From Clostridia bacterium (lineage in GTDB: Bacteria; Bacillota; Clostridia; Oscillospirales; CAG-272), in contig JAFVRG010000010.1 in NCBI GenBank assembly GCA_017504405.1, positions 1,883 through 65,882 on the forward strand: a DNA stretch of 64,000 bases, given 5' to 3'. Under the pieces are notes generated by a model. It saw only the letters and a list, made by a program, of their open reading frames with translations. It was not told the origin of the DNA and did not search any database. Shown in pieces: positions 16,286 through 63,787 of the stretch (positions are counted from its first letter, which is position 1; each line of letters begins with the position of its first letter). The translations under genes were made by a program, and so were the position numbers.

Positions 16286-16370
16286 TACGTAATGAAATCT
16301 GCCACGGGCAGATGAAATCCACCTATGGTGGATGAAGTCGCTATGCGACGAAATCCTGCTACGCAGGGTA
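16286..16370. repeat. Hairpin array B: four unique 5-bp hairpins spaced by ATGAAAT/ATGAAGT/GAAAT
   Basis: ATGAAAT at 16292 and 16312, ATGAAGT at 16332. Hairpins CTGCC acg GGCAG (16299-16311), CCACC tat GGTGG (16319-16331), GTCGC tat GCGAC (16337-16349) and CCTGC tac GCAGG (16355-16367). Confidence 0.8.
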
Positions 16371-18433: not shown

Positions 18434-18521
18434 AATAACCTCTCTTGTTAAAAAAGTGCTTGAAATTGTCTTCAAAAAATTGTATAATACATAGTATATG
18501 AGTGAAACGGAGGGTGCGACA

Positions 18522-19610
18522 ATGGCAGACACGGTAAAAATGATAGAAAACGAGCGTGTACACACCGATTTGAAAACACACGATTTTTATTATGCTCTGC
18601 CCGAGGAGCTGATAGCACAGACGCCGTCGGAGAGGCGTGATTTCTCACGGCTGATGGTGCTTGACCGAAAAAGCGAGGACTGTTCGGTTGAACACAGACA
18701 TTTTTACGACGTTATCGACTACCTTAACCCTGAGGACGTGCTGGTCGTAAACTCCTCCCGTGTAATCCCTGCACGCCTGCTCGGCGTTACCGATAAAACG
18801 GGGGCGTCTATCGAGCTTTTGCTCCTCAAAATGCTCGAAAACGGCGAATGGGAGACCCTCGTGCGCCCTGGCAAGAGGGCTAAGGTGGGTGCATCATTTA
18901 CCTTCGGCGAGGGCGCTCTGCGAGCAACCGTCACCGATATAACCGAGGGCGGAAACAGGACTGTGAAATTTGAATACTCGGATAAATTTTCAAGCATATA
19001 CGAGGCGCTCGACTGTGTTGGAAATATGCCCCTGCCCCCCTATATAACCGAAAAGCTCGCCGACAGCGAGCGTTACCAGACGGTGTACGCAAAGGAGCGT
19101 GGCTCTGCCGCCGCACCTACTGCGGGGCTTCATTTCACGCCCGAGCTGATTGAGAAAATAAAGGCAAAGGGCGTGGGCTTTTGCGAGGTTACTCTGCACG
19201 TGGGGCTCGGCACGTTCCGTCCCGTCAAGGAAGAGGATATCGAGGCACACCTTATGCATTCCGAGCATTTTTCGATAAGCCGTGAGGTAGCCGAGGAAAT
19301 AAACAAACGCCGTGCAAACGGTGGAAGAATTATCGCAGTCGGCACAACCGCCTGCCGTGTGCTCGAAAGTGCGAGCGCACCCGACGGCACTCTGTCGGAA
19401 ATGAATGCAGACACGAAAATTTTCATATACCCCGGGTATAAATTCAAGGCGGTTGATGCTCTGATTACGAATTTCCACCTACCCGAGAGCACGCTCATTA
19501 TGCTGGTCAGCGCACTTGCGGGCAAGGATAGGATTATGAAGGCATACGAGAGCGCCGTAAATGAAAAATACAGATTTTTTTCATTCGGCGATGCAATGCT
19601 CATCCTGTGA
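18522..19610 (+). CDS. queA: S-adenosylmethionine:tRNA ribosyltransferase-isomerase
   Basis: The ATG at 18522 has GGAGGGTG upstream. [36 protein letters not shown] and [10 protein letters not shown] are QueA blocks. The exact start is uncertain (18498, 18522 or 18540). Confidence 0.9.
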
Positions 19611-19620
19611 AGGATGAGCT

Positions 19621-19728
19621 AATGAATAATGAAGGCGCTTCGCCGATGAATAATGAAAAATGAATGAAGATTTTCGCCAAAGCGAAAATCAACCGAAATT
19701 ATTCATTATTCACTATTCATTATTCATT
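19621..19728. repeat. Hairpin array C: nested inverted repeats of AATGAATAATGAA around short hairpins
   Basis: 19621-19633 AATGAATAATGAA is the exact reverse complement of 19716-19728. 19645-19657 pairs over 11 nt with 19702-19713. Hairpins lie at 19634-19644 and 19670-19689 (8 bp). A 9-bp hairpin at 19598-19619 spans the queA stop. Confidence 0.75.
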
Positions 19729-19781
19729 TCTCCCGTATGCGGAAAAAGAATAAATAATAAATTTGGATAAAGGATTTATTT

Positions 19782-20225
19782 ATGTCAGAAAATAATATGA
19801 ACGGGCGGTATCTCGGCGTTGATTACGGCGACGTGCGCACAGGACTCTCGCAGACGGACATAACACGCTATCTTGCGAGCGGAATCGGGTATATAAAGCC
19901 CGGCGGAATGAGGCATACAGCCGTGGCTGTTGCCGAAAAGGCTCGTGAAATCGGCGCTGTCAAAATAGTTGTGGGACTGCCGAAGAACATGAACGGCAGT
20001 GAGGGCGAGCGTGCCGAAAAGGTACGTGCGTTTGCCGAGCTTTTGCGTGAAGAAACCGATATTCCTATTGATTTTATGGACGAGAGGCTGACAACGGTTG
20101 AGGCGTACAACTACCTCAACGCAACCGACACCGCATCGAGAAAGCGCAAAGGGGTTATAGATACACTCTCCGCCGAGATAATGCTGCAAAACTATATTGA
20201 CAGGGAAAAGGCGCAAAAAAGATAA
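19782..20225 (+). CDS. ruvX: Holliday junction resolvase-like / pre-16S rRNA nuclease (YqgF family)
   Basis: YLGVDYGDVRTGLS, VVGLPKNMNGSEG, DERLTT and AAEIMLQNYID are YqgF/RuvX signatures. Confidence 0.85.
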   Translation: MSENNMNGRYLGVDYGDVRTGLSQTDITRYLASGIGYIKPGGMRHTAVAVAEKAREIGAVKIVVGLPKNMNGSEGERAEKVRAFAELLREETDIPIDFMDERLTTVEAYNYLNATDTASRKRKGVIDTLSAEIMLQNYIDREKAQKR

Positions 20226-31632: not shown

Positions 31633-34218
<2,586 letters not shown>

Positions 34219-63104: not shown

Positions 63105-63455
63105 TTAATTTTCGGCATTACCCTTGACCGTAGTAATAGAAGAAATAAGGATTCTTCTTATTCTACCTGCTATATTGGCAAGCTTTGAAAAGGTAGCTTC
63201 GCTTATAATATCAGTTTTCACAAAAAGATTGAGCCAATATTCCGTTTCGTGGCACTCCTTAAGAGCTATTTGTAATTTTGCGGCAAAATCCGCCTTACTC
63301 TGCGCATAGTTTGCCTCATGCACATTTGCACCGATGCTTGTACCGTTTCTCAGAAGCTGATTTTTCAGCACAAATTTTCCTTTCAAGCTCTCGCAGAGCT
63401 TCACAATCTCCACAGAGAATTCCATTGATAAATCTAACAGTATGTTATCTGACAT
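63105..63455 (-). CDS. Four-helix-bundle protein (23S rRNA intervening-sequence protein / Avd-like family)
   Basis: Start at 63455 (MSDNILLDLSMEFSVEIVKLCESL). QLLRNGTSIGANVHEANYAQSKADFAAKLQIALKECHETEYWL is the family signature as I recall it. Confidence 0.75.
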   Translation of the reverse strand: MSDNILLDLSMEFSVEIVKLCESLKGKFVLKNQLLRNGTSIGANVHEANYAQSKADFAAKLQIALKECHETEYWLNLFVKTDIISEATFSKLANIAGRIRRILISSITTVKGNAEN

Positions 63456-63464
63456 ATTGCCTCT

Positions 63465-63699
63465 GATGAAATGCGGCGGCGCCGCATGAAATGATGCGTT
63501 GCATCTTGAAATGTAGCAGACTACGCCGCTACATGAAATGCACAAGCGTGCATAGAATGAAATTTGCCCTTACTAAAATATGCGCCGCAAAAGCGGCGCA
63601 TTTCATGATATTTTATATCATTTCATTCACTTTAAGTGAATTTCATTTGCACAGCCTGCTGGGCAAATTTCATTGGAAGCGAATCAACGATTCGCTTCC
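63465..63699. repeat. Hairpin array D: five (A/T)TGAAAT-spaced and four ATTTCAT-spaced unique hairpins around a 9-bp central hairpin
   Basis: ATGAAAT at 63466, 63486, 63533 and 63557, and TTGAAAT at 63506. ATTTCAT at 63600, 63620, 63640 and 63667. Hairpins at 63473-85, 63493-505, 63513-32, 63540-51, 63580-601, 63607-19, 63627-39 and 63675-99. A 14-bp long-range pair joins 63556-69 to 63661-74. Confidence 0.85.
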
Positions 63700-63787
63700 T
63701 CTATGGCAACCGCAACCGCAACAGTCATACCAACCATGGGGTTGTTACCTGTTGCTACGGCTTTCATTTATCGTCGTTTGGTATCAT

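Follow-up and report, generated by a model that had tools for sequence, protein, structure and literature searches.

Array C is a block of short repeated words and hairpins between queA and ruvX in the window, a 64,000-nucleotide (nt) stretch of DNA from a Clostridia bacterium (assembly GCA_017504405.1, contig JAFVRG010000010.1, positions 1,883 to 65,882). Our analysis makes it reasonably likely that array C is a horizontally spreading, non-autonomous, site-specific and non-coding insertion element of about 150 nt that enters the 3' ends of genes, chiefly that of queA. A sequence-only reading had described the words and hairpins of the block but missed the main point, the apparent insertion into the end of queA and its spread between species. 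Array C is a real feature, and the mechanism by which it moves may, with moderate probability, be new. According to the insertion model, the element would bring a replacement end for queA, with the final codons and stop held in a hairpin with an element-borne inverted copy, and fresh copies would keep the displaced original queA end after the end motif of the element.

In the following, L-numbers denote loci, G-numbers genomes, and C-numbers the contigs of G000, the window's own genome, a 1.79-Mb metagenome-assembled genome (MAG) in 21 contigs. The window lies on contig C9.

Evidence for insertion at the queA end and movement between species

Relatives of array C were collected with the search pattern ATGAAGNTTTTN{8,16}AAAANCAACCG, which was derived from the array itself. 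The pattern matched 13 sites in 11 of the 201 same-genus genomes (the reversed-pattern control gave 0) and at least 119 stretches in one-genome-per-species contigs; those whose central stem has 7 bp or more came nearly all from Clostridia/Eubacteriales MAGs from the guts of ruminants, other animals and humans. After removal of duplicates, 56 copies with 7-nt periodic arms remained, which together with L155 and L218 gave 58 family loci. The copies fall into dialects according to the word that is repeated in their arms.

A queA end, recognized by F-[S/G]-F-G-D codons at most 120 nt upstream, carries 34 of the 58 family loci. In 17 of these 34 queA copies, a second copy of the 19-nt queA end TCGGNGAYGCNATGCTGAT, scored at 14 or more matching bases of 19, was found after the element. 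This second copy is identical at 19/19 bases in L064 and L200, and it stands at a fixed distance after the motif CAACCG, which was 43 nt for one dialect and 66 nt for another. In G065 (L070), the right-hand copy continues into the sequence that lies downstream in element-free relatives, such as L049. The duplication and the downstream match indicate that the element went into queA at its last codons, gave the gene a new end and displaced the old end downstream. At L176, tandem head-to-tail units share one common core. The family thus shows the signature of a site-specific integrative element, as the 3' end of the target is repeated on both sides and the end is restored, and the tRNA-end duplications at C10 and C19 also repeat a gene end in this manner.

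Within a dialect, the median identity of elements across species was 0.83-0.86, reaching 0.98, and that of the adjacent 300 nt of queA was 0.63-0.66. The element was better conserved than the queA flank in 176 of 182 within-dialect pairs, which are not independent of each other. On the QueA tree (62 rows, with carriers found through the array-C-derived pattern), the dialects were interleaved, the well-supported branches forcing at least 7, 6 and 3 label changes, and carriers appeared as sisters of non-carriers (G000/G074, G088/G069, G065/G005). Since the dialects do not track the host tree, the element appears to move horizontally and to re-insert at the same site. Taken together, the target, the duplication, the conservation and the tree fit repeated horizontal arrival better than vertical inheritance.

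Several points weigh against this interpretation. To the right of array C the second queA-end copy is no longer recognizable, only the left, live copy being so, and the insertion status of array C therefore rests on its homology to fresher copies. We found no recombinase, transposase or reverse transcriptase linked to the element; 150 bp is too short to form a conventional excision circle of double-stranded DNA, and a 19-nt duplication matches no classical transposon. The search pattern biases the family sample towards close relatives of array C, on top of the non-independence of the compared pairs, and strong purifying selection on a host function could also give high conservation. A search of public assemblies for an empty site in the same species turned up only the same strain, whose spacer is identical.

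Organization of array C

The features of array C and its two flanking genes are as follows.

18498-19610, + strand: queA, S-adenosylmethionine:tRNA ribosyltransferase-isomerase (open reading frame and translation; PF02547)
19598-19619, + strand: stop-codon hairpin GCTCATCCT-gtga-AGGATGAGC, perfect 9 bp (19598-19606 with 19611-19619)
19620-19633, + strand: left arm, heptads 1-2 (TAATGAA TAATGAA)
19634-19644, + strand: GC mini-hairpin GGCG-ctt-CGCC, which breaks up the left arm
19645-19663, + strand: left arm, heptads 3-5 (GATGAAT AATGAAA AATGA)
19664-19695, + strand: conserved polar central module, ATGAAG, hairpin ATTTTCGC-caaa-GCGAAAAT and CAACCG
19696-19729, + strand: right arm of about 5 inverted heptads (AAATTATTCATTATTCACTATTCATTATTCATTT)
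19732-19742, + strand: right-end motif CCCGTATGCGG, a small hairpin (by comparison with L061-L073 and L106-L224)
19782-20225, + strand: ruvX, Holliday-junction-resolvase-like YqgF (PF03652), with the ribosome-binding site AAAGGA in front

PF02547 is annotated on the identical gene in L104, a gene call that corresponds to 18522-19610 of the window. The open reading frames and Pfam matches agree with the earlier placement of the block between queA and ruvX, ahead of the ruvX ribosome-binding site; the spacer between the two genes is 171 nt in G000 and consists mostly of array C.

The 9-bp hairpin reported across the queA stop was found as described. The final queA codons and the stop fall within it, the TGA being in the loop, the 5' arm consisting of the last codons and the 3' arm of their inverted copy. 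In relatives, the stop hairpins covary with the last queA codons (GCTGATACGATAA..TTATCGTATCAGC, GTTCATTCAATAA..TTATTGAATGAAC). The remaining pairings of the sequence-only reading could also be reproduced: AATGAATAATGAA (19621-19633) and 19716-19728 are exact reverse complements of each other, the second word block pairs over 11 bp (19647-19657 with 19702-19712), and the mini-hairpin at 19634-19644 and the central hairpin at 19670-19689 are present, the latter with an extra G-C pair (19669/19690). A 10-12-nt GC insert homologous to the mini-hairpin (GTCGCTTCGCT and similar) occurs at the same place in all copies of the AATGAA dialect. The right end of the element reads ..CCCGTACACA, and the motif CCCGTATGCGG is the counterpart of the CCCGTACACATCGG... 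end found in relatives in front of the second queA-end copy.

The repeated words had been given as 13-mers. They are present, but a tandem repeat with a unit of 7 nt fits them better, with (AATGAAT)n in the left half and (ATTCATT)n in the right half. With at most one mismatch, the 12-mer ATGAATAATGAA has 7 occurrences in the window where 0.48 would be expected, six of them inside array C. The minimum free energy (MFE) folds of the two strands had values of -61.2 and -65.6 kcal/mol, compared with shuffle means of -35.3 and -34.2 (z = -7.0 and -7.9; none of 200 shuffles equally good). Both folds form the same rod, and the word/anti-word pairs are properly nested in it, as had been proposed.

A consensus scan gave no terminator-like site on the + strand in 19300-20000 and no promoter-like site between array C and ruvX. 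The central stem is followed by CAACCGAAAUUAUUC, and the combination of GC stem and U-tract that defines an intrinsic terminator was not found.

The element family

The family loci share a recurring polar plan: a gene end, about five purine-rich heptads, ATGAAG-hairpin-CAACCG, about five pyrimidine-rich heptads, and an end motif (CCCGTAC...). There are three main dialects, AATGAAK (that of array C), AGGTAAN/AGTGAAA and AGATAAG/AGAGAAA, all with arms of 33-35 nt and about five heptads on each side; the rarer dialects are AGTTGAA, CTAACCG and ACAGTTT/ACAATTG. The elements of G065 (AGGTAAN / AGTGAAA) and G048 (AGATAAR) sit at the queA stop and have the plan and centre of array C with other heptads, and L191 is a hybrid with its left and right arms in different dialects. 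The number of heptads varies, L173 having two extra units and L101 eight naked heptads. Throughout the family, the heptad period, the arm length and the polar core stay the same, and on each strand the purine-rich word class points towards the centre.

This comparison does not support two claims of the sequence-only reading. An ATGA core shared by all words fails across the family, where other dialects read AGGTAAN, AGATAAG, AGTTGAA or CTAACCG. Nor is the nested rod a defining feature. The arm-arm duplex is stable in the AGGTAA group (median -28.6 kcal/mol) and moderate in the AATGAA group, but arm pairing in the AGATAA group (-18.2) was no better than in the reversed-arm control (-17.7), and in the hybrid L191 it is lost (-8.2). 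As the rod is not universal, that of array C most simply follows from both of its arms sharing one dialect.

Covariation in the central stem was seen at positions 1, 6 and 7, each of which has three pair types. The stem is Watson-Crick in 38/38 distinct sequences and has no G-U pair.

The proposed kinship of array C to the other arrays of the window appears to hold in terms of architecture, but array C gave no match to the Gut-1 covariance model. In L155, L161 (= L068), L218 and L212, arms made of mini-hairpin + CATGAATT units, like those of arrays A, B and D, surround the centre of array C, and it is through these shared modules, not through a model score, that array C is linked to the word-and-hairpin arrays. 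Array C itself has convergent word arms but only one mini-hairpin, where the typical array has a constant word of 7-8 nt that takes turns with variable mini-hairpins in both convergent arms.

Two explanations of the conserved parts in terms of reading frames were considered. A small open reading frame starting at ATGAAG (Met-Lys), which in G065 reaches the old queA end in frame, was rejected, as the copies have loops of anything between 30 and 38 nt and keep no common frame. An array providing stops in all frames, for which a period of 7 is suitable by being coprime to 3, does not agree with the finding that some dialects or arms are stop-free on the relevant strand (ACATCATT, ATATCATC).

tRNA-linked arrays in the same genome

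In G000 there are exactly six clusters of the word: array C, one on C20, two on C19 and two on C10. The five clusters outside queA are these tRNA-linked heptad arrays:

C20, 39290-39441
C19, 50461-50575
C19, 51422-51580
C10, 170516-170660
C10, 172068-172240

All five follow tRNA genes and have one plan, in which the tRNA 3' end (CCA), a terminator, five ATTCATT heptads and a short spacer are followed by three AATGAAT heptads, a GC insert, two more heptads and a hairpin. In these arrays, the word half has the same order as the left half of array C (words, GC insert, words, hairpin), and the anti-word block is placed upstream, not downstream. C19a and C10a follow only a partial tRNA 3' end of 16-17 nt, which is the same gene-end duplication signature as at queA, and these two copies bracket islets of about 0.85-1.5 kb.

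The spacer between the anti-word and word blocks is a perfect 11-15-nt complement of the 5' arm of the tRNA terminator. It is a better complement than the terminator's own 3' arm, which differs at the loop-proximal bases. Because this was seen for seven different terminators (C20, C19b, C10a, L024, L028, L236 and L237), an alternative long-range stem that would enclose the anti-word block is suggested.

The 1.45-kb islet behind tRNA-Leu (C10:170616-172068) is flanked by direct repeats consisting of the 17-nt tRNA end, terminator and heptad array, and contains a four-helix-bundle gene with its own promoter and a 125-aa orphan open reading frame. A similar islet of 0.85 kb behind tRNA-Trp on C19 contains a 172-aa open reading frame resembling membrane proteins.

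Candidate partner proteins and mobilizers

G000 contains four genes of the PF05635 family (Avd-like four-helix-bundle proteins), each of which (4/4) is directly preceded by a dyad word-and-hairpin array with a word of its own. The genes and arrays are located as follows.

C14: gene at 33972; array at 33690-33950
C19: gene at 78418; array at 78140-78400
C10: gene at 171667 (protein encoded by 171631-171987); array at 171990-172190
C9: gene at 65026; array at about 63423-63699 of the window

The words of the four arrays are GTGATAT, GCGATAT, AATGAAT and ATGAAAT; AATGAAT is at the C10 gene, which is 80 nt from its array. In five other genomes, four-helix-bundle genes with readable upstream DNA likewise had upstream arrays. 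In several relatives (L227, L231, L233) the last word abuts the ribosome-binding site, which makes the array part of the 5' untranslated region. Beside array D of the window, a hexamer run GGCAACCGCAACCGCAACAG (63700-63726) lies in the coding end of a gene; in G150 and G088 (L227, L228), the same gene end (GTTGCGGTTGCGGTTGCG) stands before the ATGAAAT array and the four-helix-bundle gene.

Array C is not part of such a cassette, as it is flanked by queA and ruvX and the nearest PF05635 gene is about 43 kb away. A four-helix-bundle gene was nearby at only one of the 58 array-C-type loci. When six genomes were compared, an array of the same dialect stood beside a four-helix-bundle gene in G000, G088 and partly G048, and not in G065, G106 and G150. 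That a cognate four-helix-bundle protein reads the heptads in trans is so far an unsupported possibility. They may nevertheless be binding units for some trans-acting protein, such as the arm-binding domain of a recombinase or the Avd-like protein of C10. To our knowledge, the cellular role of the Avd-like four-helix-bundle family has been a puzzle for decades. A further-reaching proposal, which we regard as unlikely, is that array C represents a new class of miniature mobile elements homing to queA codons and tRNA ends, in which the heptad dialects are a code for pentameric Avd-like proteins. The mechanism would then copy 16-26 nt of the target and build the hairpins from inverted flanking host sequence, and the five heptads per arm would be read by a cognate trans-acting oligomeric protein.

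The search for a mobilizing enzyme in G000 gave no PF00078 match and hence no reverse transcriptase. Its two Y1 genes (PF01797) are of the ordinary IS200 type with flanks devoid of heptads, and none of its three tyrosine recombinases (PF00589) adjoins array C. A retro-mechanism resembling that of diversity-generating retroelements, which Avd-like neighbours and duplicated ends might bring to mind, was rejected, as G000 has no reverse transcriptase and the copies show no adenine-specific differences. Mobilization by IS200/IS605 elements or REP-associated tyrosine transposases (RAYTs) was not supported either, both Y1 genes having unrelated flanks; IS200/IS605-type transposition gives no target duplication.

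We also looked for carriers and coding relatives among phages and plasmids. BLAST searches gave only 40-nt heptad matches, and neither these searches nor a pattern scan of viral contigs gave a coding relative of the element, all matches being at the heptad level or by chance. The viral-contig matches to the central module were chance matches in coding sequence. Two IMG/VR contigs (L262, L312) have inverted ATGAAT-type heptad blocks (e.g. AATGAATGATGAATGATGAATGG ... CATCATTCATCGTTCATCATTCATC) around intergenic regions of about 75 nt, an arrangement that occurs twice per contig with similar centres and has the look of an operator array.

Comparison with known elements

A cmscan search of 19300-20100 (E <= 10) gave no match of array C to an Rfam family, only noise such as miRNA and snoRNA models. 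In particular, Gut-1 (RF01706), for which the criterion was a score near the Rfam gathering threshold of 50 bits with three hairpins joined by GUGAAAU, did not match at array C even at E = 10, and the hybrid elements gave no match either. In the whole window, near-threshold Gut-1 matches were found only at 16290-16359, 63423-63517 and 63595-63675. Gut-1 was listed solely as a probable non-coding RNA identified in sequences from the human gut (Weinberg et al. 2010, PMC2864571). This orphan gut RNA was the only related motif that we found in the published literature. Gut-1, which occurs in gut Clostridia, consists of small hairpins linked by the constant 7-nt word GUGAAAU; array C has the related AAUGAAU and one mini-hairpin, and relatives of array C have whole arms of hairpin-plus-word units around the same centre. 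The words of array C differ in being mostly naked tandem heptads, and its polar central module and gene-end duplication are outside the Gut-1 description.

The repetitive extragenic palindromic (REP) sequences, bacterial interspersed mosaic elements (BIMEs) and REPINs of Proteobacteria, whose RAYTs are Y1 HUH transposases, resemble the array C element in being short extragenic palindromes at gene ends, present in many copies and forming stable hairpins on either strand. REP-type elements can stabilize upstream mRNA. Unlike these, however, the array C word forms only six clusters per 1.79 Mb, the unit is a heptad array rather than a single palindrome, and the element flanks no RAYT-like gene, so that a REP/REPIN-RAYT system was not found; the 19-nt target duplication is absent from REP-type elements.

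A further comparison is with integrative elements that enter tRNA or protein genes at the 3' end and bring a replacement end, and with their gene-less derivatives (cis-mobilizable elements, CIMEs, and IMEX elements, which exploit host Xer). A direct repeat of the last 16-26 nt of the target on both sides, a live gene end supplied by the element, tandem stacking at one site, and tRNA 3' ends as alternative targets with a repeat starting in the T-loop region are shared features. The array C unit differs by its size of about 150 nt, the lack of a recombinase gene nearby, and its heptad arrays with a conserved hairpin core.

The pneumococcal BOX element (boxA-boxBn-boxC) and the Correia element of Neisseria are non-coding modular repeats with variable units and complementary ends that form a long stem-loop. 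The array C element is also modular and non-coding, with variable units and complementary ends, and is located at gene boundaries; BOX and Correia elements affect transcript ends there, as the array C element may do. It differs in its specificity for the queA stop, its heptad dialects and the lack of a known parent insertion sequence, and the target duplication of the family is long as against 2-10 bp. Miniature inverted-repeat transposable elements are defined by terminal inverted repeats, a 2-10-bp target-site duplication and an autonomous insertion sequence; array C has inverted arms, but in its family the repeat at the flanks consists of some 19 nt of gene end.

The omega repressor of inc18 plasmids has as its operator 7-bp WATCACW repeats in direct and inverted orientation. 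Compared by description only, the two share contiguous 7-bp repeats in multi-unit blocks of both orientations, and array C differs in heptad sequence, in its chromosomal gene-end site and in having no ribbon-helix-helix partner. The intervening sequences of 23S rRNA in Leptospira and Coxiella carry an S23p / PF05635 gene. The likeness here consists of PF05635 genes beside word-and-hairpin arrays in G000 and of small insertions with inverted repeats near stable-RNA genes; array C, however, has no adjacent PF05635 gene and is not within rRNA.

What is new in the present case is a queA-targeting subfamily with naked heptads, a polar core, a duplicated gene end, dialects and hybrid arms, and a conservation above that of the host gene.

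Function for the host and alternative explanations

As there is no promoter-like site before ruvX and no canonical + strand terminator, queA and ruvX are probably transcribed together through array C. For the host, analogy suggests that the array would most likely be a passive, REP-like hairpin barrier at the 3' end of the queA mRNA or between the cistrons. It could further be argued that array C is simply a host cis-acting RNA of the queA-ruvX operon, a 3' stabilizer, partial terminator or RNase site that sets the expression ratio of the two genes, as REP/BIME sequences do between the cistrons of enterobacteria. Its position exactly between co-oriented genes with no promoter-like site before ruvX, its very stable fold, the conserved stop-codon hairpin that covaries with the last codons, and the location of the family at gene ends, often enclosing or abutting terminators (L026, L027, L121, L122), would agree with such a role. 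We nevertheless find it quite improbable, as the scan gave no canonical + strand terminator, the element is missing at queA in most relatives, and arm pairing is kept in only some dialects. A purely Watson-Crick central stem and strands that fold equally well are unneeded for an RNA read from one strand, and the duplicated queA end and the spread across species would be left unexplained.

The possibility also exists that the array acts as double-stranded DNA, its convergent 7-bp sites being bound by a sequence-specific protein (an omega-type ribbon-helix-helix protein, a recombinase arm-binding domain or an Avd-like four-helix-bundle protein) whose binding would give an operator, centromere-like site or roadblock. 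This explanation is compatible with a mobile element; we consider it doubtful. In its favour, the 7-bp period is strict, with about 5 units per arm (33-35 nt) in all three dialects; the word class of each strand is conserved rather than the pairing, the dialects resemble specificity variants, and hybrid arms exist (L191). Word-and-hairpin arrays upstream of all four PF05635 genes of G000, with AATGAAT at the C10 gene, and the inverted heptad blocks around intergenic regions in the phage contigs L262 and L312 point in the same direction. However, no heptad-binding protein was found, a four-helix-bundle gene is near only one of the 58 loci, in three of six genomes (G065, G106, G150) the four-helix-bundle genes have no upstream array of the same dialect, and at array C the heptad arms overlap no recognizable promoter. 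It is very improbable that the array is neutral debris, i.e., a heptanucleotide microsatellite expanded by slippage and combined with an inverted duplication at the scar of an rlmA deletion, having neither function nor mobility. The heptad copy number does vary (L173, L101), and the site is a rearrangement hot spot where rlmA is in either orientation or missing and MAG contigs break at the queA end. But an ordered plan with an asymmetric core, a covarying hairpin and constant arms recurs in dozens of species with 83-98% identity, and slippage by chance cannot remake ATGAAG-hairpin-CAACCG.

The queA-ruvX site in relatives

Most genomes of the genus have a zinc-ribbon methyltransferase gene of about 275 aa (rlmA-like, 23S rRNA) after queA, on either strand, followed by ruvX (L032, L044-L060). 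The rlmA-like gene was not found by tblastn anywhere in the G000 assembly. Array C is now the whole queA-ruvX spacer, and the rlmA-like gene has been lost along with the old queA end. Most relatives have no element at the site and other sequences after their queA.

Further observations were made around the queA end. In L066/L100, half an element and an inverted queA end lie beside an inverted rlmA-like gene, which points to the inverted repeats as the likely cause of inversions and deletions at this site. L203 has half an element (left arm and core) at a queA-end remnant and, 87-648 nt past the central module, a gene pair for a RelB/DinJ-like antitoxin and a YafQ/RelE-like toxin. In most members of the genus, a different repeat of about 115 nt follows queA (L085, L086, L090, L093, L096, L100 and others). 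With its left end ATGCTGATTGTATAAATYCCGCAATAC it extends over the queA stop, and this end pairs with the right end ..GCGAAATTTCTMCTAATCAGCAT. The repeat has an internal hairpin CGCCGTAGGTAACTACGGC and occurs in one to three tandem copies, each starting with a copy of the queA end, so that in those species too the last queA codons come from a repeat. In many MAGs of the genus (G057, G060, G066, G071, G072, G087, G105, G111 and others), queA is cut or split near its 3' end by contig ends, which fits with repeats at the queA stop disrupting short-read assembly.

Implications

If array C is indeed a mobile insertion element, gut and rumen Clostridia hold tiny elements without genes that cross between species, target the stop of queA and mend the gene that they interrupt. 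This would account for the breaks of MAG contigs at the queA end and for the scrambled gene order after queA, where rlmA is present, inverted or lost. It would also connect three orphans, the Gut-1 RNA motif, the heptamer-word arrays and the PF05635 four-helix-bundle proteins. The integration system would be unusually small and specific, and its machinery would be of interest in itself and possibly as a tool for uncultured Firmicutes.

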